Source: a virus. From it: a stretch of 64,000 bases of DNA. Below, piece by piece: positions 2 to 24,842 of this stretch. Below the pieces are notes generated by a model, which did no database searches, was not told the DNA's origin, and saw nothing but the letters and a program-made list of their open reading frames with translations. The position numbers and the translations under genes were made by a program. Where the stretch lies: positions 65,888 through 129,887 of the IMG/VR virus record IMGVR_UViG_3300045988_183830; one strand, given 5' to 3'. Each line of letters begins with the position of its first letter. The stretch's first letter is position 1.

Positions 2-3000
2 TATGGCTCACCGCAAAACTCTTCTGGTCCGAGGAGGGCTCCCGCTCGTGCATCGGGAACCATTACGACCGGCCTCGATATGGGTTATAACAGGAAGTGG
101 ATGGCTGAGTTTGCCCCCTATTCCAGTGCTGTTGAGAAATTCTTCAATGGACAGCCAGCTTACTGTATTGAGCCTCACAAGGGCGCACCCGGCTCCGGCA
201 CCTCCGTCGATGCCAGCAGCTATTGGGGGGATGATAGAGTTCGCCTTGCGCTTGCCTATGGCTGGGGTGGCGCAGATGACTCGACGTTGCTCTGGTATGC
301 TGGCAACGGCACCTATGCGTGGTGTGCTACGCAGGAGGTTATTTGGGAAATTGTTGGCGGCTACAGTGACCTGAGTGACCTGTTTGTGGGTCCCGGTCAT
401 CAGTATGACCCTGAAGTTGCTGAACCTATCAAGGCTGCTCACGATTACATTTGGAGCATGATTAACCAGCAATCTAAAATCCCCAGCTTTGCTGTATACA
501 GTCCTAAAAACACCGCAAAAGACATCGAACTGACATGGGATGGGTCGAAATGGACGGCGACGAAGTACGACTCTAACAGAGTGTTACCGAATTTCGAAGA
601 TTTCACATTTGGATTGTCTGGATTGACAGCAAGCAGTTCAGGGTACTACTTAACTATTACGGCAACTTCCGCTGCTGCCAAGAGTCTGTTGAATGGATAT
701 GCTTCTTATGCATCAGAAGGGAATGTGATTGACCCCGACAGCGTCAATGCTTACGTTCTCGTCGCAGGTGGCGGCAAGCAGGACTGCGTTGCGCTGAACG
801 GTTGGCCTGACCCCGTTACTTGTTATGTGCGGGCGAAGGTGACGCAAACAACCGGTAATCTGAACATCACAAAGACGTCTGAAAATGGGAAAAACATTTC
901 CAACGTCAGTTTTACTGTAACCGGGCCGAATGGGTATAACCGACTCTTTAAGACAAATGCATCCGGCAAAATCAGCATTACAGACCTGCAGCCCGGAACT
1001 TACACGATTACAGAATCTTCGCCGTTAGGATACTATGCTGTGAATCGGGTTCAGACTGCGACAGTTACGATTGGAGGCACGGCGAGTGTCTCCTTCCAGA
1101 ACAAAGTGTCTCGGTGTACCGTGCAGGTAACGAAGACATCGGAAGATGGAGTTCTGCAAGGGTTCACTTTTACACTGACGGGAACGTCTTACGCGGGAGA
1201 TGCTGTAAATCTGTCTGCGACCACAGATGCGAACGGCAAGGCTACGTTCTCCAATGTCCCCTTGGGTTCCAACTATGTTCTTGCCGAGGTAAATACGCCC
1301 GGAAGATATGTAGCCCCTGTCAGCCAGACGTTTACGCTTTCGACGCCTAATACGTCTGTAACCAAAACATTCGAAAATAAATTGGCTCGCGGCAACGTGA
1401 CTGTCACAAAGACCTCCGAAGATGGAAAAGTAAGCGGAGTTCAGTTTAATCTGAAGGGCACATCTTTGTCTGGACAGACAGTAAACCTTACTGAAACAAC
1501 CAACGCCAGCGGCGTGGCCACATTCTCCAATGTGCTTGTTGGTACATATACGCTGACGGAAGTAAATACAGGTAGGCAGTACGCCCCCGTGTCCGCGCAA
1601 AATGTCACGGTGCAGTATAACTCGACTGCGCGGGCGACTGTCAGCAACAAGTTGGCGCGTGGTTCGGTTCAAGTTACGAAGTCTTCTGAGGACGGGAAAG
1701 TTGCCAATGTGAAGTTCCGCTTGCAGGGAACATCCATTGACGGCACCGCTGTTGACCTGTATGCTGTGACCAATGCCTCCGGTGTTGCGACCTTCTCCAA
1801 TGTTCTTATCGGCAGCTACACAGTGTCCGAGGTCAATGCACCGGCCTACTATCAGGTGGTCAACCCTGTTAATGTTACCGTAACCATCAACAATAAGACT
1901 TCGGTGTCTATCCAGAATAAGCTCAAGGTCGGAGCTGTTCAGGTAACGAAGACCTCCGAAGATGGTGTTGTGAGTAACCTCACATTCACACTGACCGGCA
2001 CTTCCGATGCTGGTACGACCGTCAACATGACCGCTAAGACAGATGCCAAGGGTGTAGCGACATTCTCCAACGTGCCTATCGGTTCGAAGTATACGGTGCA
2101 GGAAGCCAACACTCCGGCTCGCTATGTGGTTCCTGCGGTTCAGGCTGGCGTGACTGTAAAGGTCAACGATACGACCAAGCTGTCGTTCCGTAACGACCTT
2201 GCTCGTGGTAATCTCCGTGTCACCAAGACCTCCGAGGATGGTTTGGTTTCCGGTGTGAAGTTCCATCTGGAAGGCACATCAACCTCCGGTGCGAAAGTGT
2301 CTCTGGATGCGACTACTAACGCACAGGGTATTGCCGAGTTTAAGGATGTGCTGGTTGGCAACAGCTATGTGCTGACCGAGGTCGGCACGGCTGCCCGCTA
2401 TGTGGTTCCGGCAGCACAGAATGGTATCACCATTACTGTGGGTAAGACTACTGATGCCGCCGTCTACAACAAGCTGGCTCGTGGAACTGTCACAGTCACC
2501 AAGACTGCTGAAGACGGTTTGGTGTCCGGCATCAAGTTCCGCTTGACCGGCACGGCTGGCAACGGAGACGCAGTGGACATGACCGCCACTACAAACGCCA
2601 AGGGTATTGCGACCTTCTCTAACGTCCTGATTGGTGAAAATTACACCGTTCAGGAGGTCGGCACTGCTGAGAAGTACATTGTGCCCGATGTCGTTTCCGG
2701 TATCGTAGTCACTCTGAATAAAACCACAAATGCCAACGTGTATAATAAGCTGGCCCGTGGTACAGTGAGTGTCACTAAAACCTCTGAAGATGGTATCGTT
2801 GAGGGCATCAAATTTCGCCTGACAGGAACTTCCGCACAGGGACAGGCCGTTGATATGACCGCCGTGACCAACGCTGCTGGCGTGGCGACCTTCGAGAACG
2901 TGTTGGTCGGTTATAATTACTCTCTGGAAGAAGTTGATACTGCCGCCCGCTACGTCATTCCCGCCGTCAAGGACGGTATCGACGTCAAGTTGGATAAGAC

Positions 3001-6000
3001 CACGACCGCATCTATCCATAACGTGCTGAAGAAGTGGTCTGTGACCGTCACAAAGCGCGATAACGAAACGACTACAGCACAGGGTAATGCCACGCTGAAA
3101 GGTGCCATTTACGGTCTGTATGATGGTGATGAGCTGGTGAAACAGTACACTACTGACGCCAATGGCAAGTTCACTACGGACGTCTACATCTGCGGTGATA
3201 ACTGGACCATCAAGGAAATCGTTCCTTCCGTTGGTTATCTGCTGGATGACAGCGTGTATCACGTCGGTGCTGAGGCAAAGAACTATGTTATTGAAATCAA
3301 TGCAGCTCCTGACTTGGGCGTTACCGAGCGCGTTATCAAGGGCTACATCAAGATTTTCAAGCACTCCGATGTGGGGGCTACCGGCGTTGAGGAGGCTCTC
3401 CCGACCGGCAAGGTGACTCCCGAAGTTGGAGCTGAGTTCGACGTCTACCTGAAGGCTGCTGGCAGCTACGCCAAAGCAAAGACTACCGACCGAGACCATA
3501 TCGTTGTGGGCGAGGACGGTTATGCTACCACCAAGGCTCTGCCTTACGGTACATACATCATTGACCAGACGAAGGACTTTGAAAGCGCGGATATGCTCCA
3601 TGGTTTTGAGGTCACTATTTCCGAGAACGGCAAGACATACTTCTATGTTTTGAACGACCGTCCTTACTATGCTTCTGTTCGCATTGTCAAGCTCGATGCG
3701 ATGGATAACACCCTGATTCCTTACAGTGGTGCGGAGTTCCAAATCTACGACCCTGAGGGCGCTTTGGTTTCTCTCAAGAATGGCCTTTCAACTGTCTCTA
3801 CATTTAAGACCGATGCCGAAGGTAAGCTGATTACTCCTGAGGAGCTGCCGTTTGGTTGCGGCTATACGCTGGTCGAGGTAACGGCGCCCAAGGGTTACAA
3901 GCTGGATTCCACTCCCATCGAGTTCAATGTTGACGCAGAGAACACTACGATGGAAGGTGATAAGAAGGTCATCGTGGTTACGGCAAAGGATAGTCCTGTG
4001 ACACCGGAAATCAAGACCATGGCAAAGGGAGCTGCTGGGGAGAAGACTATGGAGCCCCTGACATCTGTGACTATCAAGGATACAGTATCCTGCACAGATG
4101 TAATCCCCGGCAAGACCTACACCGTGAATGGATATCTTGTGCTGAAGTCTACAGGTGAACCTTTGCTGGATGGCAGCGGTAAGCGCATCACTGCAACAAA
4201 CACATTTGTTGCAGGTGACAACTTCAATGGTTCCACGGAGCTGACCTTTACCTTTGATGCTTCTCTGATTGCCGGCGATGCTGTTGTTGTTTTCGATACG
4301 CTGCATCGTGATGGTGTTGAGGTAGCAAGCCACAAGGATATTGTGGATACCGACCAGACCGTAGCTTTCTACGCTCCTGAAATCAAGACCTCAGCGAATA
4401 ACCCTGATGGTAACGTGAAGGTTGTTGACCCCTCCGTTGGTGTTTCTATCGTTGATACCGTATCCTATAAGCACCTGACACCCGGCCATAAATATGTACT
4501 GAGTGGGCAGATGATGGATAAGGACACACAGCAGCCCGCAAAGGATGACAATGGTAATTTCATTGTTGGCGAGACAACCTTTACGCCGTCCACCACTTCA
4601 GGTACGGTGGATGTGGTCTTTACCTTCGACGCCACTGAGATTGCCGGCGTCCAGCTCGTTGCTTTCGAGAAACTCTACCATGTTGCTATCAGCGCAGAAG
4701 TGCCTGTTGCGACGCATGAGGACATTGACGATGCTGACCAGACCGTGACGGTCGAGGCTCCTGAGATAACAACCAACGCAGTGAATGCTGCTGACGGAAC
4801 GAAGTTCCTTGAGGCGCAGTACAGCGTAAAAATCAAGGATACCGTCTCTTATGAGAAGGTCGTTGAAGGGCATACCTATCTGCTGACTGGCAAGGTCTTT
4901 GATAAAACTACGGGCGAGTTCCTGAAAGATACTGCCGGCAATGACATTACCGGCACGACGACGTTTACGCCTACGGCAAAGACCGGTACAGTAGATGTCG
5001 AGTTCATCTTTGATGCTTCCGAGTTGTATGGGCATACGCTGGTTATCTTCGAGAAGCTGTCCTACCGTGGTACGGTGCTGACGGTTCACGAAGATGATGC
5101 AGATGCCAACCAGACCGTGAAGGTATATAACCCCGAAATCGGCACTACCGCTATTGACGGTGAGGGTACTGGAAAGTTCATTGACCCTGCAAAGAATGTT
5201 GTCATCAAGGATACGATTGCATACGAGCACCTTACCATCGGTCAGGAGTACACCATCACTGGTACGGTGATGAATAAGCGCACCGGTGAGCCTGTGGTTT
5301 CTGGCGGGCGTACCGTAACCGTGACGAACACGTTTACGCCTACCGCCTCTAAGGGCAGCACCGAGATGGTATTTACCTTTGATGCTTCCGGCCTTGACGG
5401 TGATTCTCTGGTTGTCTATGAGGAGCTGTATTTCCGCGCTTCTGACACGACTCCTTGCGCTGTCCATAAGGACATCAATGATGAAGGCCAGACTGTCGCT
5501 GTGAATACCCCTTCGGTTCATACGACCATCAACGAAAGCATCTCTCTGAACAACTACTTTGAGCCCCTGAACGAAATCACTATCACGGATACCGTGACCT
5601 ATACCGACCTCGTGCCCGGTCACACGTATAAAGTGATGGGCAACCTCGTTTCCAAGGATACCGGCGATGTCATCCGTGACGGCAACGGTAAATTGGTAGC
5701 TGGCGAGACTGAGTTCGTTCCGACCAGTAAGGATGGCAGCGTTGACGTGACCTTCACGCTGAATGCATCTATTCTGTACGGCCAGAGCGTTATCGCCTTT
5801 GAGTCTCTGTACTATCACAACACCATTATCGCCGAGCACAAAGACCTTACGGACGAGAAGCAGGAAGCCATTTTCTTCGCTCCTGAGTTGAGCACTAAGG
5901 CCCTGAACGATGACGGCAATACCAACCTGATTGACCCCGCTAAGGGGACTCATATCGTGGATACCGTGTATTACCGCCATCTGACTCCCGACCATGAGTA

Positions 6001-9000
6001 CACCATCATCGGTAAGCTGATGGACAAGGATACCGGCAAGGCTCTGCTCGATGCGAAGGGTAATGAGATTACCGGCAAGACCACGTTCACACCTGAGCGT
6101 GTTGCTGGGACTGTGAATGTAGAGTTTACCTTTGATGCCAGCAATATGGCGGGGAAGACCCTCGTGGTGTTTGAGTATCTGTACTTCAATAAAAACGAGG
6201 AGATTCCTGCAGGCAAACACACTGACATTAACGACCTGAAGCAGTCTTTGACCTTTAATACTCCGGAAATCAAGACCAGCGCAAAGAACGCAGAGGGCAA
6301 TTCCAAGTTCTTCGACCCCAAGAGTTCTGTGAAACTGATTGATACCGTCACGTATTCAGGTCTGAGTAAGGGACATGAATATACCGTGTCCGGTACGCTG
6401 ATGAATAAGCAGACTGGCGCTCCTGTGCTGAATTCTAATGGAACTCCCGTAACAGGCAGCACGACCTTTACAGCCCGCAGTGTGAACGGAAAAGTCAATG
6501 TCGAGTTTACCTTCGATGCTTCGCAGCTCTATGGTCAGTCCTTGGTCGTGTTTGAGGAATTGGCTTTCAACGGTACGATTATCGCCGAGCATAAGGACTT
6601 TGAGGACGATAACCAGACCGTGAAAATCAACACGCCAAGCATCTCAACGAGCGCTGAGAACACTGATGGCGGCAACAATTTGGTCGATGCAGCCAAGAAG
6701 GTTTCCATCACTGATACCGTTACCTATTCCCATGTGACACCCGACCACGAGTATACACTGGTTGGACGACTGATGAATGGTGAAACTGGTGAAGAACTGC
6801 CCAACACGGTTGTATCTATCAAGTTTACACCGAAGCGGACTTTTGGCTCCGTGGATATGACATTCACTTTGAATGCCTCTCAGCTCGCAGGCAAGAGTGT
6901 TGTGGTATTTGAGGAACTCTTCTTCAATGAGAACGACGTCGAGCCTTGTGCGAAGCATACAGACCTCCGTGATGAAGCGCAGACCGTGATTGTCACCGAG
7001 CCCAGCATTGGTACGACGATGAACGCAAGCCCTGATAAGAACCAATTCTTCGTCTCTTCGTTGGCTACTGTTCTTGTCGATACCGTGAGCTACCACAACC
7101 TCATTCCCGGTCATACTTACGTTGCTGAAGGCCGCCTGATGGATAAGGCTACTGGCCGAGTGCTGGTCGGAGGAAACGGGGAAATCACGGGCAAGACGAT
7201 ATTTGTGCCCACATCTTCCGACGGTTCTGTTGATGTCTACTTTACGTTTGACTCCTCAGCGCTGTTTGGGAAGACGGTCGTGGCGTTTGAGACTGTTTCC
7301 TATGATGGAAATATCATCGCCAAGCATGAAGACATCGACGATGTTGACCAGTCTGCCACGTTCTATATGCCCGAACTGTCCGATACGACCGCCGAGAATG
7401 GCGAGGGCGGCGGAAAATTCATTGATGCAGCCGGAAATGTCGTAATTCGTGATACTGTCAAGTATGAACACCTGTCAGCAAAACACGACTATAGGCTGCG
7501 TGGGACACTGGTTTATCAGACTTCTGGTGAGCCTGTTCTGCTGAACGGAAAGCCTATTGTCGTTGAGAAATCCTTCACCGCAAAGAAGGCATACGGCAGC
7601 ATCGACATGGAGTTTACTTTCGATGCAATGGGTATGCAGGATAAGGACATCGTTGTATTCGAGGAACTGTTTTACGAGCAGCAGACTGTTGCGGTTGCGT
7701 CCCACAAAGACCTTGACGATGAAGGCCAGACCGTAACGGTAGCGAAGCCCACCGTTAAGACCACGGCTTCCAATAAGGCTGATGGCAGCAAAATGCTTGA
7801 ACCTGAAAAGAAAGTCACGATTCTGGATACCGTTTCCTTCACTGGCCTGATTGACGGTCATACCTATAAGGTCTCCGGAACACTGATGGATAAGGCAACC
7901 GGCAAGCCTGTGGTCGATGCGAATGGTAATACGATTACCGTTGAGAAGACTTTTAAGGCAAAGGATGCCAACGGTAGCATTGATGTTGAGTTTACCTTTA
8001 CTGCTACCGAGCTGTTCGGCAAAGACCTCGTTGTATTCGAGAAGATTTTCTACAACGACACTGAGATTGCATCCCATGAAAACATCAATGATAAGGGACA
8101 GACCGTACAGGTTTACAATCCCAATATCACTGGTACAACAGCAGTTGGAACACTTGATGGCGGTAAGTTCATTGACCCCGCTGCAAACGTGAAAATCACC
8201 GATACTGTAACCTATGAGCATCTCTCCACCGGCCACGAGTACACGCTGCGTGGTACGCTGATGAACAAGGAGACTGGCGAACCTATCAAGAGCGGCGGAA
8301 CAGAGGTTGTATTCGAACAGGTCTTCACGCCTGCGGCAACAAGCGGCTCTGTGGATATGCAGTTCACTTTCAATGCCTCTTTCTTGAAGGGTAAGGATGT
8401 TGTCGTATTCGAGGAAATCTACTTTAACGTTGACGATACCGAACCTGTCGCAGTCCATAAGGATATCGTCGATGGCAGCCAGACCGTTTCTGTGACGAGT
8501 CCTGAAGTACAGACCGTTGCCGTGAACAAAGAGGATAACGGCAAGGTGTTTGAGCCGGATACCACGGTCACGCTGAAGGATACTGTGTTCTACAACAACC
8601 TTATTGTGGGGCACAAGTACACCGTGACCGGAACCCTGATGGATGAGGAAACTGGGAAAGCCATCAAGGATATTGATGGAAACATCGTAACTGCTTCCGT
8701 CGAGTTCGTCCCCGAAGCTGCCTGCGGTACGGTCGATGTCGAGTTTACCTTTGCTGCAACCGAACTGTACGGTAAGACTATCGTGGCATTTGAGAAGCTC
8801 CTGTTTAACGGGACTGTCATTGCATCTCACGAGGATATCAATGATGAGGAGCAAACCACCACGGTCCATAACCCTGAATTTATGCGAACTATCGCGGTGA
8901 GCGCAGTTGATGAGGGCAAGCTCATTGATGCCTCTGAAACCTCTATCATCAACGATACCGTGGTGTATCGCCACCTGTCTACCGGTCACACCTACACGCT

Positions 9001-10915: not shown

Positions 10916-10949
10916 CTTAAATGGGGTCAGCAGACCTCATAGAAACCCA

Positions 10950-10990
10950 AAATTGGGCCGGAGAAAACCTCCGGCTCAATTTTTTTGCAA
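10950..10990 (+). terminator. rho-independent terminator after adhesin 1
   Basis: The stem gggccggag...ctccggctc is followed by aattttttttgc. Confidence 0.6.
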
Positions 10991-11118
10991 AAATTTTTCA
11001 GGAGAAATTTGGAGGGCAGTGGACTGCTGAAGCTGTTGCTACATCAAGGGTTTCAGATTTTTGGAACACAAGACCTTGTGCTTTTTGCACCTCAGATTCA
11101 TATTTTTACAAAATCGAG

Positions 11119-11149
11119 ACTTGACATTTTTTTATATTCGTGTTATAGT
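11119..11149 (+). promoter_or_regulatory. sigma-A-type promoter (TTGACA-17-TATAGT) for the lipoprotein gene; the 31-nt block is duplicated at 30407-30437
   Basis: acTTGACAtttttttatattcgtgtTATAGT. The identical 31-mer is found upstream of the nuclease gene. Confidence 0.55.
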
Positions 11150-11255
11150 CAGCACATCAAAAATAATGTCAAGTTTCCACAGAACAAATCCTCGCGCACT
11201 GGTCATTTATTTGAATACATTCCCTGAGCAAATTTTGAATTTTAAGAAAGGAACT

Positions 11256-12410
11256 ATGACAATGAAAAAGATGAAGAATTTTATGGCCCTGCTGCTGGCT
11301 CTGGTGATGACCATGAGTTTGGTGGCCTGTGGCAACAAGACCAGCGAGGAAACCAAGACCGGCGAGGAAATCGGATGCTACGTGCAGACGACTGAGACCG
11401 GCGAAAAGGTTCTGGTGGACAAGGACGGCAAGGCAGTGACCGACTTCACGCTGGATGCGGACGGCAATGTGCTGGATGCGGATGGCAATGTGGTCGTCAA
11501 GGCGGAGGATATCACCGCTTATGTCGAGCAGTCCGGAAACGTGACAGATGAGAAGGCGGAGGAACCCAAGGTCGATGATGCTCAGAAGACCGAGGATAAG
11601 ACCGATGCCAAGGATGAGGTCAAGGCCGACGACAAGAAGACCGAGACCAAGGTTGACGAGTCCAAGAAGGATGAGAAGAAGCCCGCTGACAATAAGCAGG
11701 ATACCTCCAAGACGGACACGAAGACCGACACGAAGACGGATAACAAGTCTGACAACAAGAGCGATACCAAGACAGAGACTCCCTCTCAGAAGCCCTCTAC
11801 TCCCAGCTATGACAACGGCAGCCTGACTACTGCTCAGGTGAAGGAGCTGCAGCGTTGGTATGGCGTGACCGCTGACGGTCAGTGGGGTGCAGGCTCCAAG
11901 AAGGCCGCCGGTGGCCGCACCGCTGACGAGGCTTGGGCCTACTACCAGAACAACAAGCAGACTACCACGCCTGACAAGCCCTCCGGCGGCAACGGTGGCA
12001 GCACTACTCCCAGCAAGCCCTCTGACGACAACAGCGGTTCCACTGGTGGTGGTTCTACTACTCCCACCGAGCCCACCAAGCCCACAAAGCCGACTAAGGC
12101 TGACATCGACTGTGCGGCTGCAATGTCCGTTGGTAACTCTTATGCAGAGGGTTATGGCTTTACTGTAGACTCTGCTTGCAGAAGTTATTTCCCTCCCATC
12201 TATCTGGAACGCGATTGCCCTGAGTCCTGCTGGAATCAGGAATGGGTTGAGTCCGCAATCAAACAGAAAGTTGACTATGTTAAGAGTGCTCTTGAGCGCA
12301 ACGGTGAATGGTATCCCGAAATTGAGGGATGGTATGTTGGTATCAACTGTGTTGTTCGCTGGAATGCATCTGCGGGCTATCATGAAATCTTCGTTTACTA
12401 CGGTGGCTAA
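11256..12410 (+). CDS. lipoprotein with a Lys/Asp/Thr-rich low-complexity linker and a putative peptidoglycan-binding (PG_binding_1-like) domain
   Basis: ATG follows the RBS aagaaaggaac. The signal peptide with lipobox is MKKMKNFMALLLALVMTMSLVAC. The PG-binding-like segment is TTAQVKELQRWYGVTADGQWGAGSKKAA. The C-terminal domain is Cys-containing. Confidence 0.75.
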   Translation: MTMKKMKNFMALLLALVMTMSLVACGNKTSEETKTGEEIGCYVQTTETGEKVLVDKDGKAVTDFTLDADGNVLDADGNVVVKAEDITAYVEQSGNVTDEKAEEPKVDDAQKTEDKTDAKDEVKADDKKTETKVDESKKDEKKPADNKQDTSKTDTKTDTKTDNKSDNKSDTKTETPSQKPSTPSYDNGSLTTAQVKELQRWYGVTADGQWGAGSKKAAGGRTADEAWAYYQNNKQTTTPDKPSGGNGGSTTPSKPSDDNSGSTGGGSTTPTEPTKPTKPTKADIDCAAAMSVGNSYAEGYGFTVDSACRSYFPPIYLERDCPESCWNQEWVESAIKQKVDYVKSALERNGEWYPEIEGWYVGINCVVRWNASAGYHEIFVYYGG

Positions 12411-12429
12411 CTAATAACGGTAATTCAAG

Positions 12430-12465
12430 AAGGCAGCGGCAAAAAGCCGCTGCCTTCTTCTTGCC
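12430..12465 (+). terminator. rho-independent terminator after the lipoprotein gene
   Basis: gaaggcagcggc aaaaa gccgctgccttc is followed by ttcttg. Confidence 0.6.
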
Positions 12466-12671
12466 CATGAACTATTTGACAAATTCGTTGTGTTTAGAAA
12501 TTTGTGTCTCCGGATGTGTTGACAATATAATCGAATATGCTACTATGGGATTATGGAGAGCGTCGGTCTCCTGCCTTTTTTGCATCTCGAACTTGGCAAA
12601 ATATCATATTCATGTAAAGGTAGAAAGGCCGGTTAATCTTCAAAAATTTTTGAAAGGAGATTTCAAAAACC

Positions 12672-15600
12672 ATGAAACACAAGAAGCTGCGTGGCGTAGT
12701 AGCTATGTTGCTGACGCTGGTGATGGTGGTCGGATTGCTCCCGACATCCGTGTATGCAGCGGATGCGGATGGCGGCAGCAATTCGGTCGTTATCGAAAGT
12801 GTTTCTGACCCTGTAGAGGTTGGGAAGACTGATTCTGGCGATGGCGATTTGGTCTATAACGCCACAGAAGACGCGAAGACTCCCGATGATGGTAAGAAGG
12901 ATGCCGAGGCTCCTGCCGTTGAGGGTAAGAGCGACGCTGATAAGGATGTCGCAAGCAATGGAGACGAAGAAAAAAAGGACGTTTCCAAGGATAACTCTTC
13001 TAAGGATGAGCAGCCTGTTCAGTCTAACGCTGGAAAGGCTGAGGACGGAAAGAAGGAATCTGATAAGGTTTCTGTAAGCGAAGAAGTTTCCGACCCTTAT
13101 GCGGGTGGGGACACTCCCGTGAGCGTTTCCGTCCTTTACGGGTCAGCGCAGAACGCACCCAGAGCTATCAGTGCCATGAGAGCACCCGCTCGTTCCTCCG
13201 GAACCATTACGACCGGTGACGATATGAGTTACAACAGTACGTGGCTGTCAGCATTTGAGCCGTATACAAGTGCTGTTGTAAAATATTTCAACGGCCAGCC
13301 CGCTTATTGTATCGAACCTCACAAGGGAGCTCCCGGTAGTGGCACTTCTGTTGATGCAAATACTTTTTGGGGTAGCGATGATGTCCGTCTTGCTCTTGCC
13401 TACGGATATGGTGGTGTGGATGATAGAACACTTCTATCTTATGCCGGCAATGGCACGTATGCATGGTGCGCTACTCAGGAAGTAATTTGGGAGATTGTTG
13501 GCCCTTACTCAGACTTGAGCGACCTCTTTGTTGGACCCGGACACTCTTATGATTCTGATGTTGCACCTTATATCAAGGCTGCTCACGATTACATTTGGAG
13601 CATGATTAACCAGCAATCTAAAATCCCCAGCTTTGCTGTATACAGTCCTAAAAACACCGCAAAGGATATTGAGCTTGAATGGGATGGCACCAAATGGACA
13701 GCGACTGAATATGACTCCAACAGGGTTCTGCCGAACTTCGAGGACTTTACGTTCAATCTGGCCGGCGTCGAAACAATTCAGAGTGGCTACAATCTGACAA
13801 TCAGCGCCACAGCCGAGGCAGCAAAGAGTATGTTGAATGGCATTGCGTCAAATCCTGCCGAGGGTAATGTGATTGACCCTGATAGTGTCAATGCCTATGT
13901 TCTTGTTGCTGGCGGAGGTAAGCAAGATTGTGTTGCTCTGAATGGTTGGCCTGACCCTGTTACGGCTTACGTCAGAGCAAAGGTCACGAAGACCACCGGA
14001 GACCTGACCATTGCCAAGACCTCTGAGGATGGCAAGGCTGGCGGCGTGAGCTTCACCGTGACCGGTCCCAACGGCTTCAGCAAAACCGTGACAACTGCTG
14101 CCAACGGCAAAATCACCATTGCTGACCTGCAGCCCGGTACGTACACTGTGACAGAGAAGACGTCGGAAAACTACATTCCGACGACATCTCAGACTGTGAC
14201 CATCGCAATCGGAGACGTCAAAACAGTGAGCTTCAACAACGTTCTGAAGAAGGGCACTGTCAAGATTACGAAGATGTCTGAGGATGGTCAGGTTGCCGGT
14301 CATACCTTCCGGCTGTCCGGCACTTCCGCTGCCGGTACGTCCGTAAATATGACCGCTACTACCGATGCGAACGGCGTTGCCACCTTCAACAACGTTCCTA
14401 TTGGTAAAAACTACAAACTTGAGGAAATCAATACCGCTGCAAAGTATGTGGTTCCTGAAGTTCAGGCTGGTGTTGTCGTTGAGTACAACGCCGCCACTGA
14501 AGCCAAGTTCGAGAATAAGCTGGCTCGCGGTAATCTGAAAATCACGAAGACTTCCGAGGATGGCTTCGTGTCCGGTATGACTTTCCGCCTGTCCGGTACT
14601 TCCATCTCCGGTGCGGCTGTCAACGAGACGGCTACCACCGATGAGAACGGTGTGATTCTGTTTAAGGATATCCTTATCGGTAACAACTACACCGTGCAGG
14701 AAATCAACACCGCTGAGAGATATGTCGTTCCCACCATTCAGGAGGGCGTGACTATTTCTCTGAACAAAACGACCAACCTGCAGTTCGAGAACAAGCTGGC
14801 TCGCGGTGCCGTTGAGGTCAAGAAGACCTCTGAGGACGGCAAGACCGCCGGTATCACGTTCCGGCTGTACGGTACGGCCATCAACGGTGAGACCGTTGAC
14901 ATGACCGCTGTTACTGACGCAAACGGTATCGCTACTTTCAATAACGTTCTGATTGGTAACAATTACAGCGTTGAGGAAGTCAACACCGCTGCGAAGTACG
15001 TTGTTCCTGAGGTGAAGGCTGGTGTCAAGGTGACGCTGGGCAACACCACTGATGTGGAAGTCTACAACAAGCTCAAGCGCGGCGACCTGCGCGTGACCAA
15101 GACCTCCGAGGATGGTTTAGTCGAGGGCATTACTTTCCGTCTGTACGGCACTGCCATTTCCGGCGATGCTGTGGATATGACCGCTACCACCAACGCTGAC
15201 GGCGTTGCCATCTTCAAGGATGTCCTGATTGGCAACAACTACACGCTGGAAGAGGTCGATACCGCTGTGAAGTACGTCATCCCCGCTGTTCAGGAAGGTC
15301 TTGTGGTCGAGTACCAGAAGACGACCGATACGGCTGTGAGCAACGTACTGAAGAAGTGGAAGGTCACTGTCAAGAAGACCGACTCCGAGACCGTTGACAT
15401 TCCTCGCGGCGATGGCGTTTTCGAGGGTGCTGTGTATGGTCTGTATAAGGGCGACGAGCTGGTGAAGGAGTACGTCATCGGTAAGGACGGCACGTTCACG
15501 ACCGACGAGTACATCTGCGGCTACGATTACACCATCCGTGAAATCAAGGCTCCTACCGGCTATCAGATTGACGAGACCGTGTATCCCGTTGGTTCTGAGC

Positions 15601-18365
15601 CTGAGAACTACACCATTGAGCACAACTCTGCTCCTCTGATTACCTCTGTTGAGGTCATCAACCGTGGTACGTTCGCTATCACCAAGTTCATCTCCGATGG
15701 CACTTCCGGCCCCGCTAAGTTCGAGGGCGGCGCTGAGTTCATCTACTGGCTGCAGTCTGCTGGCTCCTATGAGAACTCCAAGGAGGACGAGCGTGGTACG
15801 CTGACCACCAATGAGCTGGGTTACAGCGGCAAGTCCATCGAGCTGCCTTACGGCACCTATGTGGTGCGTCAGACCAAGGCCGGCGACAAGGGCGCAGGCC
15901 TCGCACCTGAGTTCACCGTTCTGGTTGGCGAAGTTGACCGTGACCATCATGATTTGGCTGTCAACAACGGCCCCATCACTGCGTATCTGCGCGTTGTGAA
16001 GGTCGATGAGTTCGATGGCGAAGTCATTCCTTGGGGCGGCGCTGAGTTCCAGATTTATGACCCCGATGGCAACAAGGTGTCTCAGAAGGTCACTTATCCC
16101 ACTGTCAAGTATATTGATACATTCGTGACCAATGATGAGGGTTACTTTGTGACTCCTCTGGTTCTGCCTTATGGTGAGGGCTATCATCTGGTCGAGACCA
16201 AGGCCCCCAAGGGCTACGAGCTGATGGACACTCCCATCCGCTTCGACGTCACTCCCGACACCATCTCTCTGGACGCTGAGACCGGTCTTGTGACCGTGAG
16301 CATCGTCGCTGAGGATGAGGCTGTGACCCCCAAGGTCAAGACCACTGCCACCGATAAGGACGGCAACAAGGAAATCATTCCTTCCACCTCCGTCACTATC
16401 ATTGATAAGGTGGAATGCACTGATGTCATCCCCAACAAGACCTATACGGTCGAGGGCTATCTGGTGGTTAAGTCCACTGGTGAGCCTCTGCTGGATGCTC
16501 AGGGCAACCGCATCACTGCTTCCAAGACCTTCAAGGCCGAGGCCGACTTTACCGGCTATGTGGAGCTGGAGTTCACCTTCGATGCTTCTCTGCTGGGCGG
16601 CGAGTCCCTCGTTGCTTTCGAGGACCTGAAGCGTGGTGAGAAGGTCGTTGCGACTCATGCCGACATCAACGATGTTGACCAGACCGTTGTAATCCTGAAC
16701 CCCAAGATTGGCACCACGGCCAAGAACGCTGTTGGCGGCAAGGAGTTCATGCCTCTGGCTGATGTGATTCTGGTGGATACCATCTCCTACGAGAATATGC
16801 CCGTGGGTAAGGAGTTCATCGCTATCGGTACGCTGATGGATAAGGCCACCGGCAAGCCCGTTACCGATGCCAACGGCGACCCCGTTACCTCTTACAAGGT
16901 GTTCACTCCCGAAGCTGCCACTGGTACGGTGGATGTGAAGTTCGTCTTTGACGCTTCCAAGCTGGCCGGCAAGTCGCTGGTGGTATTCGAGCGTGTGTAT
17001 CTGGGCAACGAGATTGTTCCCGGCGACTCCAATAAACCCGTGTTTGTGAGTCACGAGGATATCAACGATGAGGGGCAGACCGTCACCATCGGCGTTCCCG
17101 AAATCGGTACAAAGGCCGTGAACAACGCCACCAACGGCAAGACCCTCGACCCCGAAGCCCGCGCTGAAATCAAGGATACCGTGTCCTATAAGGGCCTGAT
17201 TGCTGGCGAGAAGTACACTGTTTCCGGTAAGCTGATGAACAAGGCTACCAACGAGCCCCTGAAGGATAAGGACGGAAAGGAAATTACCTCCTCCGTTACT
17301 TTCACCGCTGAGGCGTCCAATGGCACTGTTGACGTGTTCTTCGTGCTCGATGCATCTCTGCTGCGGGGCCAGTCCATCGTTGTGTTCGAGTCCCTGCAGT
17401 ACAAGGACATTGAAATCGCAGTTCACGCCGACATCGACGATGTTGACCAGACTGTGACTGTCAACAGCCCTGAAATCAAGACCACCGCTAAGAACGCTGC
17501 TGATGGCAAGAAGGAATTCTGGGCCTACAGCAAGGTCGAGCTGGTCGATACCGTGTCCTATAAGGGCCTGATTGCCGGCAATAAGTACACCGTAATTGGT
17601 AAGCTGATGGACAAGGCGACGGGTGAGCCTATTCTGGGCCGCAACAACAAGGAAATCACCGCCACTACCGAGTTCGAGGCCAAGTCCTCTGACGGTACTG
17701 TGGATGTGAGCTTCGTGTTCGATGCCTCCATTCTGGGTGGCAAGACGCTGGTCGTGTTCGAGACTCTGACCCGCAATGGCACTACGGTCGCTACGCACAC
17801 CGACATCAACGATGTTGACCAGACCGTGACTGTCAAGCGCATCCCGACCTATTCCGGTCCGAGCATCTCTACGACTGCCACCTTCGACGGCAAGGACAAG
17901 AAGAACTCCGTGGCTGGCAAGAACGTGAAAATCGTGGATACCGTCAACTACACCGGCCTGACCGTGGGTAAGACCTACGTGCTGGTTGGTACGCTGATGG
18001 ATAAGGATACCGGCGTTGCCCTGAAGGACAACAACGGCAACCTGATTACCGCGTCCACTACCTTCACTCCCAAGTCCGCCAATGGCGCTGTGAACGTTAC
18101 GTTCAAGTTCGACGCATCCAAGCTGAAGGACCACGCTATCGTTGTGTTCGAGACACTGTACGAAGGCAAGGCCGAAGCCGGCAATGTCATCGCAACGCAC
18201 AACGACCTGATGGACGGCGCTCAGACGGTGTACTTCCGCGATAGCGTCCAGACCGGCGATGAAGGCATCGGCTTGTGGGCCATGCTGGGTACGTTCAGTA
18301 CCATCGCTTGCTGCGCTACGGCGATGTTCATGTTCCGTCGCAAGAAGGAGCAGTTCGCCGAGTAA
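12672..18365 (+). CDS. sortase-anchored adhesin 2 (1897 aa): signal peptide, acidic low-complexity region, thioester domain, Cna B-like repeats, 5 Thr-Gln ester-bond repeats, C-terminal anchor
   Basis: RBS aaaggagatttcaaaaacc precedes the ATG. The signal peptide is MKHKKLRGVVAMLLTLVMVVGLLPTSVYA. The thioester-domain motifs are YCIEPHKGAPGSG and CATQEVIWEIVG. The 5 ester-bond motifs include HADINDVDQTV and HNDLMDGAQTV. The C-terminus is SVQTGDEG (LPxTG-like) plus a TM segment and RRKKEQ. Confidence 0.9.
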   Translation: MKHKKLRGVVAMLLTLVMVVGLLPTSVYAADADGGSNSVVIESVSDPVEVGKTDSGDGDLVYNATEDAKTPDDGKKDAEAPAVEGKSDADKDVASNGDEEKKDVSKDNSSKDEQPVQSNAGKAEDGKKESDKVSVSEEVSDPYAGGDTPVSVSVLYGSAQNAPRAISAMRAPARSSGTITTGDDMSYNSTWLSAFEPYTSAVVKYFNGQPAYCIEPHKGAPGSGTSVDANTFWGSDDVRLALAYGYGGVDDRTLLSYAGNGTYAWCATQEVIWEIVGPYSDLSDLFVGPGHSYDSDVAPYIKAAHDYIWSMINQQSKIPSFAVYSPKNTAKDIELEWDGTKWTATEYDSNRVLPNFEDFTFNLAGVETIQSGYNLTISATAEAAKSMLNGIASNPAEGNVIDPDSVNAYVLVAGGGKQDCVALNGWPDPVTAYVRAKVTKTTGDLTIAKTSEDGKAGGVSFTVTGPNGFSKTVTTAANGKITIADLQPGTYTVTEKTSENYIPTTSQTVTIAIGDVKTVSFNNVLKKGTVKITKMSEDGQVAGHTFRLSGTSAAGTSVNMTATTDANGVATFNNVPIGKNYKLEEINTAAKYVVPEVQAGVVVEYNAATEAKFENKLARGNLKITKTSEDGFVSGMTFRLSGTSISGAAVNETATTDENGVILFKDILIGNNYTVQEINTAERYVVPTIQEGVTISLNKTTNLQFENKLARGAVEVKKTSEDGKTAGITFRLYGTAINGETVDMTAVTDANGIATFNNVLIGNNYSVEEVNTAAKYVVPEVKAGVKVTLGNTTDVEVYNKLKRGDLRVTKTSEDGLVEGITFRLYGTAISGDAVDMTATTNADGVAIFKDVLIGNNYTLEEVDTAVKYVIPAVQEGLVVEYQKTTDTAVSNVLKKWKVTVKKTDSETVDIPRGDGVFEGAVYGLYKGDELVKEYVIGKDGTFTTDEYICGYDYTIREIKAPTGYQIDETVYPVGSEPENYTIEHNSAPLITSVEVINRGTFAITKFISDGTSGPAKFEGGAEFIYWLQSAGSYENSKEDERGTLTTNELGYSGKSIELPYGTYVVRQTKAGDKGAGLAPEFTVLVGEVDRDHHDLAVNNGPITAYLRVVKVDEFDGEVIPWGGAEFQIYDPDGNKVSQKVTYPTVKYIDTFVTNDEGYFVTPLVLPYGEGYHLVETKAPKGYELMDTPIRFDVTPDTISLDAETGLVTVSIVAEDEAVTPKVKTTATDKDGNKEIIPSTSVTIIDKVECTDVIPNKTYTVEGYLVVKSTGEPLLDAQGNRITASKTFKAEADFTGYVELEFTFDASLLGGESLVAFEDLKRGEKVVATHADINDVDQTVVILNPKIGTTAKNAVGGKEFMPLADVILVDTISYENMPVGKEFIAIGTLMDKATGKPVTDANGDPVTSYKVFTPEAATGTVDVKFVFDASKLAGKSLVVFERVYLGNEIVPGDSNKPVFVSHEDINDEGQTVTIGVPEIGTKAVNNATNGKTLDPEARAEIKDTVSYKGLIAGEKYTVSGKLMNKATNEPLKDKDGKEITSSVTFTAEASNGTVDVFFVLDASLLRGQSIVVFESLQYKDIEIAVHADIDDVDQTVTVNSPEIKTTAKNAADGKKEFWAYSKVELVDTVSYKGLIAGNKYTVIGKLMDKATGEPILGRNNKEITATTEFEAKSSDGTVDVSFVFDASILGGKTLVVFETLTRNGTTVATHTDINDVDQTVTVKRIPTYSGPSISTTATFDGKDKKNSVAGKNVKIVDTVNYTGLTVGKTYVLVGTLMDKDTGVALKDNNGNLITASTTFTPKSANGAVNVTFKFDASKLKDHAIVVFETLYEGKAEAGNVIATHNDLMDGAQTVYFRDSVQTGDEGIGLWAMLGTFSTIACCATAMFMFRRKKEQFAE
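14013..15387 (+). repeat. Cna B/SpaA-like Ig repeats (about 5) in adhesin 2
   Basis: The (I/V)TKTSEDG motif recurs at about 92-aa intervals. Confidence 0.7.
16302..18160 (+). repeat. 5 Thr-Gln ester-bond (HxDxxDxxQ / VaFE) repeats in adhesin 2
   Basis: The H[AENT]D[IL]xDxxQTV motif occurs 5 times, together with VAFEDL, VVFERV, VVFESL and VVFETL. Confidence 0.75.
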
Positions 18366-18401
18366 GCACATCCCCACCTGAGCAATCACTCAAAGTGAAT
18401 T

Positions 18402-18440
18402 CAGGGGCGCAGGCACAAGGTCTGCGCCCCTGTTTTTGCA
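18402..18440 (+). terminator. rho-independent terminator after adhesin 2
   Basis: ggggcgcaggcacaaggtctgcgcccc is followed by tgtttttgc. Confidence 0.7.
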
Positions 18441-18487
18441 AAAAAATAAAAGCAGGGGAGTAGCCCTCCCCGGAAAGAGAGAACAAT

Positions 18488-18826
18488 ATGAAATACTGCA
18501 ATAACTGTGGTAAAGAAGTCGATGATAACGCCGTCATCTGCCCCTCCTGCGGCTGCGCCGTGGCGAGCAAGAATGTCGAGGTGGACAAGCCTTCTACCGG
18601 TCTGAACATCCTGTCGTTCCTCATCCCGCTGGTTGGCCTGATTCTGTATCTGTCGTGGCAGAATTCGACCCCTATTAAGGCAAAGGCTGTGGGGAAGTGG
18701 GCCCTGATTGGATTCTGCGTGGCAGTCGGTCTGAGTATCCTCGGCACCATCCTTTCCGGCGCACTGATTTCCAGTGTGGTTGGTGGATGGTATTCTGCTG
18801 TTGACACGGCATCAGTGTTTAGCTGA
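18488..18826 (+). CDS. zinc-ribbon domain membrane protein
   Basis: RBS gaaagagagaacaat precedes the ATG. The N-terminal zinc ribbon is CNNCGK...CPSCGC, followed by two TM helices. Confidence 0.65.
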   Translation: MKYCNNCGKEVDDNAVICPSCGCAVASKNVEVDKPSTGLNILSFLIPLVGLILYLSWQNSTPIKAKAVGKWALIGFCVAVGLSILGTILSGALISSVVGGWYSAVDTASVFS

Positions 18827-18930
18827 GATTTCGGTTCGCGGCTTGAAGACGAAAACAGTAGGGGAGAAGGTGGAACTTCTCCCCTGCTGTTTATTGAAAA
18901 CTTGTAAGAAGGAAAAAAAGAGAGGTAAAA

Positions 18931-19626
18931 ATGATATTTGTTGCTCCAGTCGTACTATCTGTCTCGTTGATTGAAGTTGTTAGACTTATAGCAGACGTTG
19001 CGACGGTTTTAGTCGCAGCATTTTCGTTATTTATTTCTTATTCCATGTTGAAAACAACACAAAAGCAGGTGAATGAGAGTGTATCAATACAGTATAAGCG
19101 TGATTTGGCAGGCCTTTTTCTTTGCTTACAAGACGCAATGTATAATGTGGAGAGGTTTAGCGAAATTATGTCACCTTTTACTGAAGATGCAGGGAGCCTT
19201 GCCAAGCGGCAAATATCTGATGTTGAGGACAAAATAATTAACGTTCTTTCTCCTGTAAGGCTTGATGAGAATTCCTCTTTTGTGATTCACACAATGAGAG
19301 ATAAACTTAGCAAACTGGAAGAATATGAACTAATGGCCGTGTCATTACTTGAGCAGCAACAGCGCATTGGGAAAGATAATGCAAAGATTGTTTCTTGCTT
19401 TATTCATACATATCGCTTATTTATTATAGCTGTCTGGAACAAAAGATGTTTCACAGCCGCACTCTGTAACAGTGTAAAAAAATGCAGGGAAGACAATATA
19501 AACATTTATCCGCTTGGTAATTGTGAAAAATCAATCTACGGTCTATTTATGGATTTGGATAAATTGAAAAAAGCAGTAACCTCTGGTGAGATATTAGACA
19601 AAATTGGGAACATCTTATACGGGTAA
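18931..19626 (+). CDS. hypothetical protein (N-terminal TM helix), markedly AT-rich gene
   Basis: RBS agagaggtaaaa precedes the ATG. Composition is AT-rich over 18.85-19.70 kb compared with the flanks, suggesting recent acquisition. Confidence 0.5.
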   Translation: MIFVAPVVLSVSLIEVVRLIADVATVLVAAFSLFISYSMLKTTQKQVNESVSIQYKRDLAGLFLCLQDAMYNVERFSEIMSPFTEDAGSLAKRQISDVEDKIINVLSPVRLDENSSFVIHTMRDKLSKLEEYELMAVSLLEQQQRIGKDNAKIVSCFIHTYRLFIIAVWNKRCFTAALCNSVKKCREDNINIYPLGNCEKSIYGLFMDLDKLKKAVTSGEILDKIGNILYG

Positions 19627-19697
19627 CAATTAGCTGGAAATGTTTTTCGGGATGTTGTAAAATAGAATAAACTTATGAACAAGGGGGACTGTTCACA

Positions 19698-21218: not shown

Positions 21219-21227
21219 AACAAGGAG

Positions 21228-21262
21228 AGCAATCCGGTCGGGTTGCTCTCCTTTATTTTGAA
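21228..21262. terminator. bidirectional terminator between convergent genes
   Basis: ggagagcaatccggtcgggttgctctcc is flanked by T/A runs. Confidence 0.6.
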
Positions 21263-21312
21263 AACAATGTATTCATATAATATATCACATTATTAAGTTG
21301 TTAAAAAAAAGG

Positions 21313-24805: not shown

Positions 24806-24842
24806 TCTGCGTTCCTATCAATGCTGTATCGTCATATCGTGA

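Follow-up and report, generated by a model that had tools for sequence, protein, structure and literature searches.

Two paralogous TIE adhesins on a conjugative plasmid-like element from human-gut metagenomes, with a probable role in mating-pair formation or aggregation

The window, that is, the whole stretch of 64,000 nucleotides analysed here from IMG/VR record IMGVR_UViG_3300045988_183830, opens with two very large genes for surface proteins, A1 and A2, which raises the question of what these proteins are, which kind of replicon carries them and what they do for it. A1 and A2 are clearly paralogous members of the known family of TIE adhesins and not a new kind of system. The reading favoured here is that they are probably sortase-anchored, fibrillar TIE adhesins, encoded on a conjugative plasmid-like element of ~174.5 kb from uncultured human-gut Clostridia, with mating-pair formation or aggregation as the preferred role. 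The original prediction had assigned to both open reading frames a thioester warhead, a CnaB-like stalk, an ester array and a sortase signal, and the positions and order of these elements are confirmed. The features of the locus are the following:

2..10915 (+): adhesin A1, 5'-truncated at the window edge, with the frame open from base 2 (Pfam and NCBIfam matches)
2..859 (+): A1 class II thioester domain (TED) (Pfam TED/TED_2; 82% amino acid identity to the A2 TED)
within 2..859 (+): A1 Cys codon at 164-166 (YCIEPH) and TQxxΦW motif TQEVIW (motif positions)
within 2..859 (+): A1 candidate bond-forming Gln, in KQDCVAL, fragment residue 260 (motif position)
860..3970 (+): A1 stalk part 1, 8 regular CnaB/SpaA repeats of ~90 aa plus 3 irregular SpaA-like ones (Pfam SpaA x11; repeat dissection, alignment)
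3968..10780 (+): A1 stalk part 2, 18 tandem Thr-Gln ester-bond (TQ/VaFE) domains of ~122-133 aa each (Pfam, NCBIfam, motifs, alignment)
10781..10915 (+): A1 predicted sorting signal, TVTVTV-SPKTG (SPKTG at 10799-10813), hydrophobic segment, KRKKNK tail, stop (translation)
11121-11149: promoter-like site before the lipoprotein gene
11262..12410 (+): lipoprotein gene between A1 and A2, 382 aa, with lipobox LVAC and a Lys/Thr/Asp-rich low-complexity linker (gene call)
12519..12546 (+): promoter-like site before A2, TTGACA, 16-nt spacer and TG-extended -10, 10/12 matches (consensus match only)
12672..18365 (+): adhesin A2, complete, 1897 aa (ORF call, Pfam, NCBIfam)
12672..13202 (+): A2 signal peptide (aa 1-29) and acidic/Lys-rich low-complexity spacer (translation)
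13203..14003 (+): A2 class II thioester domain, with Cys213 (13308-13310), TQxxΦW Gln269 and candidate bond-forming Gln418 (13923-13925)
14004..16295 (+): A2 stalk part 1, 5 regular CnaB/SpaA repeats (Lys/Glu/Asn triad) plus 3 irregular SpaA-like ones (Pfam, repeat dissection, alignment)
16293..18224 (+): A2 stalk part 2, 5 tandem Thr-Gln ester-bond domains (Pfam, NCBIfam, motifs, alignment)
18225..18365 (+): A2 predicted sorting signal, TVYFRD-SVQTG (SVQTG at 18243-18257), hydrophobic segment, RRKKEQFAE tail, stop (translation)
18402..18432 (+): intrinsic-terminator-like hairpin 3' of A2, with a 13-bp stem, 10 G-C pairs and a T run

A1 had been given as at least 3611 aa with 18 ester domains, in agreement with the 3637 aa found inside the window and with a full gene call of 3788 aa on a ~174.5-kb contig that is base-identical to the window across window positions 2672-28365. 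The window start cuts the gene, and a signal peptide could be read only from a related variant, P0016. The exact A2 protein is found on 6 contigs of 50-200 kb each, and the window agrees base for base, over the 25.7 kb compared, with two ~174.5-kb contigs assembled from different samples, which rules out an assembly artefact. The intervening lipoprotein gives only weak matches to lipoprotein signal peptides.

In the stalk, Pfam counts 18 T-Q ester domains (PF18202) for A1 (E = 0) and 5 for A2 (E = 3e-147), NCBIfam VaFE_rpt returns identical counts, and SpaA/CnaB (PF17802) is matched 11 times in A1 and 7 times in A2, the latter having 7-8 such domains overall. Lys (in VTK), Glu (in Y.L.E) and Asn (in xN[KVD]L), which we take to be the CnaB isopeptide triad, are present in 13/13 regular repeats (8 in A1 and 5 in A2). 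All 23 ester domains contain the signature H-x-[DN]-x-x-D-x-x-Q and a VaFE-type motif, as had been read from the repeats, and none of the Thr, Gln, His and Asp positions is missing from their alignment with Cpe0147. Positions T11, D33, H120, D125 and Q128, in a register with Cpe0147 that was confirmed, are the equivalents of its T450, D480, H572, D577 and Q580 and are invariant in 23/23, while E104, the equivalent of E547, is kept in 22/23, the lone exception being an Asp in A1 domain 1. In such domains Thr serves as the nucleophile, His as the base, Asp as the acid and Gln as the electrophile, together with two buried acids (PMC12679949). An array of 18 had been called exceptionally long; it is long, but not exceptional, given that 30 of the top 150 database representatives contain 18-30 ester domains and that the adhesin of M. 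curtisii has 18 too (PMC10619420).

Both adhesins have the TED fold that characterises TIE proteins, with PF08341/PF20610 matched in A1 and A2 and both TED and TED_2 above the cut-off in A2. YCIE, present in both, conforms to the [YFL]CΦζ motif that holds the bond-forming Cys. This Cys is invariant across a family alignment of 105 sequences, and aligns with the Cys in FCIEP of SaTIE and in YCMD of EfmTIE86, which, from the offset of the chains, would be bond-forming Cys296 and Cys88, respectively. The original prediction had paired the Cys of YCIEPH with the Gln of TQEVIW. The Cys stands, but the Gln does not, as TQxxΦW is an accessory motif whose Gln is not the thioester partner (PMC6194298). 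In class II TEDs the bond Gln sits 171-205 residues past the Cys, within a weak ΦQζΦΦ motif of a late β-strand. In A2, Gln418 (KQDCVAL) lies 205 residues past Cys213, is invariant in five homologues (29-82% identity) and is at least 90% conserved among the 105 sequences. Because of this invariance and of the class II spacing, Gln418, and not the Gln of TQEVIW, is the likely candidate for the bond-forming residue.

The arrangement of class I TEDs, without a β-sandwich insertion and with the bond Gln ~10 residues after helix α3, is not seen in these domains. The warhead is of class II (SaTIE/BaTIE type), and the description of the proteins as Cpe0147-type does not apply to it. SaTIE is the best match in structure and sequence, with a TED identity of only ~16-20%. 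No solved structure aligned across the segment that holds Gln418. The AlphaFold model of the TED is of moderate quality (pLDDT 58) and poor precisely around the Cys and the candidate Gln, and a Foldseek search with it returned nothing significant. Between A1 and A2 the TEDs share 82% of amino acids and 74% of nucleotides, with a pS of 0.74 (saturated) and a dN/dS of ~0.04, compared with 44-62% amino acid identity and dN/dS of 0.23-0.48 for the stalk segments, a pattern which indicates that the warhead is under strong constraint. Recent gene conversion between the two TEDs is ruled out by the 74% nucleotide identity and the pS of 0.74.

At the other end of both proteins the final ester domain runs directly into the sorting signal, as had been noticed: just six residues lie between the last ester Gln and SPKTG (A1) or SVQTG (A2), and a hydrophobic stretch and a Lys/Arg tail follow. 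Substrates of the clostridial type are defined by (S/P)PxTG at 17-45 residues from the C-terminus, a hydrophobic segment, at least two basic residues and an N-terminal signal peptide. A1 agrees with these features (SPKTG, hydrophobic stretch, KRKKNK), its signal peptide being seen in the related variant, and SPKTG is among the motifs that SrtB of C. difficile cleaves (PMC4155245). In A2 the signal peptide, the hydrophobic segment and an RRKK tail are present, but SVQTG, identical in 7 A2 orthologues, falls outside the pattern. A similar motif, NVQTG of CbpA, was left uncleaved by SrtB in vitro (PMC4155245).

A search for a class B sortase found none; instead, a divergent trio of sortase-like genes is located elsewhere on related elements. 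The window contains no Pfam Sortase match above threshold and no class C sortase homologue, and the ~160 kb inspected in the window and in its relatives revealed no canonical sortase. The three sortase-like proteins keep the His and the Cys, lack the catalytic Arg and have a CCHC-type knuckle. Comparison of this family with two class C sortases by hhalign was not significant (E 0.4), though the alignment was in register, and a PDB sequence search gave spurious WD40 matches only. The cluster sizes of these proteins, 700-900 member sequences, suggest that the plasmid family is prevalent.

As for the replicon, each of the two ~174.5-kb contigs matches the window exactly over the 25.7 kb compared, and one is a circular permutation of the other; the carrier of A1 and A2, from human-gut metagenomes, is probably a circular, conjugative plasmid-like element of ~174.5 kb. 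Genes for a RepL-like protein, ParA and ParB lie directly upstream of A1, and a third surface protein, a VWA-repeat protein with a VWA/MIDAS-type domain and the sorting motif [S/A]PQTG, adjoins parA. The type IV secretion system (T4SS), of the Gram-positive kind, was read on relatives of the window's contig. The closest of them, IMGVR_UViG_3300045988_183936, is 94-97% identical to the window segments compared and has both adhesin genes and T4SS genes on one contig, that is, adhesin and T4SS on one replicon as for TIEpLS20. Among its genes are those for a VirD4-like protein scoring above the NCBIfam conju_CD1115 cut-off, a VirB4-like ATPase, a wall hydrolase with CHAP and lysozyme domains, DUF5697 and a primase, and there is a weak match to MobH. 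An exact VirD4 39-mer was found in 8 metagenome contigs of 40-134 kb, one of them from a human gut metagenome and none of them the window's contig. The nearest plasmid homologues are records labelled Oscillospiraceae and Monoglobus; megablast of window positions 10900-30000 against plasmid and phage collections gave no match, and GTDB genomes scanned with TED patterns yielded two loci, at just 24-25% identity.

From these elements a working model can be proposed. A1 and A2 would be exported via their Sec signal peptides, and the C-terminal signal would keep each protein in the membrane until a sortase joins its Thr to peptidoglycan. The Ig-like domains of the stalk would then lock themselves, the CnaB/SpaA domains by Lys-Asn isopeptides and the TQ domains by Thr-Gln esters formed with the Thr/His/Asp triad and the two buried acids. 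This would give ~29 (A1) or ~13 (A2) covalently stapled domains and, at 4-5 nm per Ig-like domain, stalks of very roughly 120-140 nm and 50-65 nm. At the tip, the class II TED is predicted to hold a Cys-Gln thioester (Cys213-Gln418 in A2), whose attack by a target amine would link the adhesin covalently to the surface of its partner. Since near-identical warheads stand on stalks of unequal length, A1 and A2 probably bind the same ligand at two distances. The favoured role, attachment to other cells, follows from the T4SS of the element, as read on relatives, together with the class II TED adhesin that is required for conjugation of pLS20. Against a mating role, the adhesin genes do not belong to the conjugation operon: they follow parAB and point away from the T4SS block, whose start lies several kb upstream on the opposite strand, and they have promoter-like sites of their own.

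The strongest alternative, which we regard as possible if somewhat doubtful, is that the adhesins are plasmid cargo for host colonisation, their thioesters reacting with lysines of host or mucus proteins, their long stalks spanning cell envelope and mucus, and with no part in DNA transfer. TED adhesins are best known for host-protein binding, and characterised ones bind host proteins covalently, such as SfbI with fibrinogen (PMC4450167). The origin of the element in human-gut metagenomes, the promoter-like sites and terminator of the adhesin genes, their location outside the T4SS block and the VWA/MIDAS-type domain of the protein beside parA, of the kind found in host-binding pilus tip adhesins, agree with this alternative. 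However, a mating function has been proven for one class II TED adhesin of a conjugative plasmid (PMC8092201), a T4SS immediately precedes the nearest plasmid homologue, and TED genes adjoin parB on two other large plasmid records, which suggests a function of the plasmid backbone rather than cargo. With mating-pair formation or aggregation as the preferred role, attachment to host or mucus is possible as a second benefit. A more elaborate form of the mating reading, in which A1 (SPKTG), A2 (SVQTG), the VWA-repeat protein ([S/A]PQTG) and the three Arg-less sortase-like enzymes would form a self-contained display and mating system, the long adhesin capturing the recipient and the short one docking it for the T4SS, seems unlikely.

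Still less probable is that the element is a large phage or phage-plasmid and that the adhesins are lysogenic-conversion genes which alter the surface of the lysogen. The arrangement of RepL with ParAB is also found in phage-plasmids such as P1, genes for YopX, a YqaJ-like exonuclease and SSB are present, and ~30 related contigs of 40-192 kb are listed as viral in IMG/VR. Nevertheless, no capsid, portal, terminase or tail gene was detected among the proteins scanned from ~160 kb (~70 proteins by Pfam and one batch of 10 by PHROGs, those of IMGVR_UViG_3300045988_183936 coming from outside its positions 113.5-142.3 kb, a stretch of ~29 kb), one protein of the PHROGs batch matching two families of unknown function, and a complete-looking conjugation set is found instead. 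Least credible is that rapid, ongoing expansion and contraction of the ester array accounts for the 18 and 5 domains, as had been supposed from that difference itself, its sole support: the 23 ester domains are only 30-60% identical in pairs (mean 42%), their DNA copies are mostly 60-70% alike, Tandem Repeats Finder detected nothing in either gene, synonymous sites between A1 and A2 are saturated, 7/7 A2 orthologues (85-94% nucleotide identity) have a TED, 5 CnaB and 5 TQ domains, an A1 orthologue (80% nucleotide identity) has 8 CnaB and at least 17 TQ domains in 3789 aa compared with 3788 aa, and the first TQ domain of A1 is the orthologue of the first in A2, as the last is of the last, so that the difference in copy number is old and internal.

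By itself, the architecture is a variation to be expected among TIE proteins. Should the favoured reading be true, a common family of conjugative megaplasmids of the human gut holds cells together with covalently reactive, stapled adhesins, and the single experimental precedent, pLS20, would be extended to strict gut anaerobes and to much larger adhesins of the sortase type. In addition, the 23 diverged, catalytically intact ester domains and the 13 CnaB repeats represent a panel of potentially orthogonal self-ligating modules for protein engineering.

Among the known systems, Cpe0147/CpTIE from Clostridium perfringens (PDB 4NI6, 4MKM, 5A0G) shares with A1 and A2 the N-terminal TED, the shaft of tandem Thr-Gln ester domains and the sortase signal, and all six catalytic or bond residues of its ester domains are conserved here (PMC12679949). 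It differs in its class I TED, its 11 highly similar ester domains and the absence of a CnaB segment (PMC6194298, PMC10619420), whereas A1 and A2 present a class II TED, 8-11 CnaB/SpaA domains before the ester array and ester domains that are ~42% identical. SaTIE from Staphylococcus aureus (PDB 6FX6), with a class II TED, four isopeptide and two ester domains, has the three cross-link types in the same order and is likewise of the sortase-anchored type. It is far shorter (2 ester domains versus 18 and 5) and only ~16-20% identical in the TED, while A1 and A2 are two paralogues on a plasmid with non-LPXTG sorting motifs. In the actinobacterial genus Mobiluncus, the adhesins of M. mulieris, with 7651 aa and 51 Ig-like domains, and of M. 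curtisii, with 5040 aa and 18 ester domains, are TIE proteins that combine a TED with very long arrays in which ester and isopeptide domains are mixed (PMC10619420), and several solved 'Adhesin' ester-domain structures match the TQ domains of A1 and A2. The Mobiluncus proteins interleave ester and isopeptide domains and place the TED after an N-terminal region of more than 2000 residues, whereas in A1 and A2 the CnaB and ester domains form two separate blocks.

With regard to function, the closest precedent is TIEpLS20 (gene 34) of the Bacillus subtilis plasmid pLS20, which resembles A1 and A2 in its class II TED, its CnaB-type stalk and its conjugative plasmid. Efficient conjugation requires this adhesin, a Cys-to-Ser change inactivates it, and the TED Cys is essential for efficient mating in liquid (PMC8092201). 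Unlike A1 and A2, TIEpLS20 is encoded within the conjugation operon and neither depends on a sortase nor has a sorting signal; its stalk has three domains, none of them an ester domain. Finally, the closest annotated TED homologue, at 34% identity, is a tip pilin (WP_212822129.1) of Vescimonas fastidiosa, encoded on pMM35_02, a 142-kb Oscillospiraceae plasmid. This protein is a pilus tip subunit of 443 aa without ester domains, and not a giant adhesin made as one chain; genes for a SpaH-type major pilin and for two class C sortases come after it. Its gene lies directly downstream of a T4SS module with a CD1115-type VirD4, an S1-domain protein and DUF5697, a set that relatives of the present element share.

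Two adhesin genes, A1 and A2, lie at the left of the window with a lipoprotein gene between them:

2-10915 (+): A1, a single open frame running past the left edge, 3637 codons in the window
11121-11149 (+): strong promoter-like site upstream of the lipoprotein gene
11262-12410 (+): lipoprotein gene, between A1 and A2
12672-18365 (+): A2, a complete ORF, 1897 aa

The full A1 gene call, found on one ~174.5-kb metagenome contig that matches the window, is 3788 aa; the N-terminus outside the window, as seen in a related variant (P0016), starts with a signal peptide and continues as an acidic low-complexity spacer. According to Pfam, the T-Q ester domain (PF18202) occurs 18 times in A1 (E = 0) and five times in A2 (E = 3e-147), the SpaA/CnaB prealbumin fold (PF17802) 11 times in A1 and seven in A2, and the thioester domains (TEDs; PF08341/PF20610) once per protein, and the NCBIfam VaFE_rpt model agrees on 18 and 5 ester domains. 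These assignments are not due to chance. The original prediction of two adhesins with 18 and 5 ester domains is therefore confirmed, and the HMM search it proposed matched all three domain types in both proteins; its interpretation is supported only in part.

Regular CnaB/SpaA repeats of ~90 aa, eight in A1 and five in A2, separate the TED from the ester array, and each protein has three irregular SpaA-like domains in addition. All 13 regular repeats retain a Lys (VTK), a Glu (Y.L.E) and an Asn (N-K/V/D-L), which we take to be the pattern expected of Lys-Asn isopeptide domains. The ester arrays were split at the HxDxxDxxQ motif and all 23 units were aligned, their register against Cpe0147 (PDB 4MKM) being verified residue by residue. 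The Cpe0147 residue set is present across the alignment: equivalents of the T450/H572/D577 triad, of the electrophile Q580 and of the buried acid D480 occur in every unit (23/23), and the second buried acid, equivalent to E547, is Glu in 22 of the 23 units and is replaced by Asp in the first domain of A1 (residue roles from PMC12679949). With this Lys/Glu/Asn stalk, an ester array and a TED in both proteins, A1 and A2 would each unite all three cross-link types that define the thioester-isopeptide-ester (TIE) proteins (PMC6194298, PMC10619420). They are new members of this adhesin family.

Within the TED, the Cys of YCIEPH aligns with those of the FCIEP motif of SaTIE, a class II TIE protein from Staphylococcus aureus, and of the YCMD motif of EfmTIE86, which by chain-offset inference are the thioester residues Cys296 and Cys88. 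The partner Gln had been placed in TQEVIW, but this belongs to the TQxxΦW motif, whose Gln and Trp lie beside the thioester bond, the Gln not being the bond partner (PMC6194298). Class II TEDs have their partner Gln 171-205 residues past the Cys, after an inserted β-sandwich. A2 offers a candidate in Gln418 (KQDCVAL), which is invariant and lies 205 residues past Cys213; homologues sharing no more than 29-39% identity keep its context as [FMK]Q[SD][CFV], and at least 90% of the members of a 105-sequence alignment have this Gln. The two TEDs are 82% identical despite saturated synonymous sites, with a dN/dS of about 0.04, which would indicate a common, constrained ligand. In an 80%-identical variant, an in-frame TAG (KWMA*FAPY) at L001:10559-10561 (~window 107-109), 5' of the thioester Cys, cuts the A1 orthologue into 186 + 3555 aa, and several TED fragments from metagenomes carry frameshifts (P0008, P0011, P0012, P0015). 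These could be genuine inactivation or chimeric assembly of the two similar TEDs.

Regarding array length, a profile of the 23 ester domains matched 5526 proteins when run against 1.84 billion representative proteins, and 30 of the best 150 of these have 18-30 matched domains. M. curtisii also reaches 18 ester domains, and M. mulieris 51 Ig-like domains (PMC10619420). The A1 count is thus in the upper tail, not a record, and calling its length exceptional is an overstatement. Nor is rapid repeat expansion and contraction supported: pairwise identity among ester domains is 30-60% (mean 42%), their DNA copies are mostly 60-70% alike, Tandem Repeats Finder detected no repeat in either gene, and synonymous sites between A1 and A2 are saturated (pS 0.54-0.74). 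Moreover, all seven A2 orthologues (85-94% nucleotide identity) have a TED, 5 CnaB and 5 ester domains, and an A1 orthologue (80% identity) equals A1 in total length, with 8 CnaB repeats and, up to the locus end, at least 17 ester domains. The first and last ester domains of A1 and A2 are orthologous. The array is thus old and stable. A1 ester domains 3-17 (within 3968-10780) form two alternating subtypes, one of which has 2-3 extra loop residues ahead of the His, and unit length alternates too. Identity is slightly higher within a subtype (45%) than between neighbours (41%), a pattern predicted either by growth of the array two domains at a time or by dissimilarity being maintained between adjacent domains.

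Only six residues separate the last ester Gln from the sorting motif, SPKTG in A1 and SVQTG in A2, so that a wall-spanning linker is absent from both. SPKTG, which had been assigned to clostridial sortases, is a proven substrate motif of C. difficile SrtB (PMC4155245). SVQTG is of another type, identical in 7/7 A2 orthologues and similar to the NVQTG of CbpA, for which SrtB cleavage in vitro failed (PMC4155245). The class B sortase expected nearby was not found: the 64-kb window has no Pfam Sortase match above threshold and no homologue of class C sortases, and relatives carry three sortase-like genes lacking the catalytic Arg, about 17-19 kb past the right end of the window:

L060:7465-8238, 8255-9055 and 9100-9894 (-), also in L061-L067: three tandem sortase-like genes
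L001:5582-7219 (+) and L029:4231-7167 (-): third sorting-signal surface protein, between the RepL-like genes and parA

The trio (257-266 aa each) have a membrane anchor and a CSYCGSxxHxxxxC knuckle. Four of six members match Pfam Sortase weakly (E 1e-4, under the gathering score), and a profile search ties them to PF04203-annotated proteins. Aligned with these and a class C sortase, they keep the sortase His and Cys in register, and a 5-residue deletion removes the catalytic Arg. The cluster is conserved in every relative covering its region, its protein clusters containing 700-900 member sequences. The third surface protein has a signal peptide, five repeats of an ~85-aa 'HEYYTNG...RYDR' unit and a C-terminal VSPQTG or APQTG, hydrophobic segment and basic tail; in a longer variant, a VWA/MIDAS-like DxSxS domain is added at the N-terminus. 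The element family thus totals three candidate substrates and three sortase-like genes.

Upstream of A1, a related variant carries RepL-like genes, the third surface protein, parA and parB. The lipoprotein has a Lys/Thr/Asp-rich linker encoded by short in-frame DNA repeats and a Cys-rich C-terminal domain without family match; it may conceivably serve in surface exclusion or as an accessory protein. A second promoter-like site lies 5' of A2 and a strong terminator-like hairpin 3' of it. Genes in the rest of the window encode topoisomerase III, a non-specific endonuclease, SPFH/flotillin, Fic, zeta toxin and a CobT-like VWA protein adjoining a weak AAA_5-like one, most other ORFs there having no Pfam match:

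22508-24805, 30483-32737, 38237-44328 and 51019-51762: backbone and accessory genes (Pfam)

Precomputed Pfam hits place PemK-type toxin genes at and just beyond the right end. A 451-aa RRXRR-domain protein, possibly IscB/HNH-like, is encoded upstream of the replication genes (L001:1-814 (-); L019:3668-4726 (-)), and some relatives have an IS605 OrfB/TnpB-type gene. Contigs of 174,496 and 174,547 nt (L002/L003 and L016/L017), recovered from two different samples, are base-identical to window 2672-28365 (25.7 kb compared). Their start points relative to the window differ, so that they represent a single ~174.5-kb molecule in circularly permuted form.

Conjugation genes were read along the relative IMGVR_UViG_3300045988_183936, which has both adhesin genes and shares 94-97% identity with the window over the segments compared. 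They form a block transcribed divergently from the RepL-parAB-adhesin block, with a VirD4-like coupling protein (NCBIfam conju_CD1115, 324.8 bits, cut-off 250), a VirB4-like ATPase (CD1110 family, E 6e-78), a primase-like protein, a CHAP + lysozyme wall hydrolase, an S1-domain protein and DUF5697; farther along are a DNA methylase, a serine recombinase and a weak MobH-like match. The family is filed in IMG/VR as viral contigs of 40-192 kb (L006-L014, L019-L046, L057-L089). In about 160 kb inspected (~29 kb unread; PHROGs applied to a single batch of ten proteins), genes for conjugation, partition and toxin-antitoxin systems are present and virion genes were not seen. Phage-like genes include YopX, a YqaJ-like exonuclease, a RecD-like helicase and an SSB with a DDSDLPF tail (L068:3868-9647). 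Either the viral listing is a misclassification or the element is a phage-plasmid.

Functionally, the adhesins would be exported, anchored by sortase, stapled along their own stalk and able to capture a target covalently through the thioester, a mechanism well founded on family knowledge. The favoured role is cell-cell attachment serving the plasmid, i.e., mating-pair formation or aggregation, because the replicon family is conjugative, because the closest plasmid homologue is T4SS-linked and because the Bacillus subtilis plasmid pLS20 requires a class II TED adhesin for efficient transfer, its Cys-to-Ser mutant being dead (PMC8092201). Host-surface attachment may be an alternative or parallel role, the two not being exclusive; the location of A1 and A2 outside the transfer operon and the fact that TEDs are best known for host ligands (PMC4450167) count against the favoured role. 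One conserved warhead on 29-domain and 13-domain stalks invites the speculation of action at two distances. The pairing of a long form with a short one on a gut conjugative megaplasmid is of mild interest but no surprise.

Among other plasmids, Vescimonas fastidiosa pMM35_02 carries the nearest annotated TED homologue (34% identity), a pilus tip subunit encoded directly after a T4SS module of the same type and before two class C sortases. Two large circular plasmid records labelled Subdoligranulum variabile, L047 (OY725878.1) and L048 (OY725857.1), a label that may be unreliable because their assembly holds dozens of 'plasmids', encode a TED + CnaB protein 1-2 kb downstream of parB, in the same synteny as here but without ester domains.
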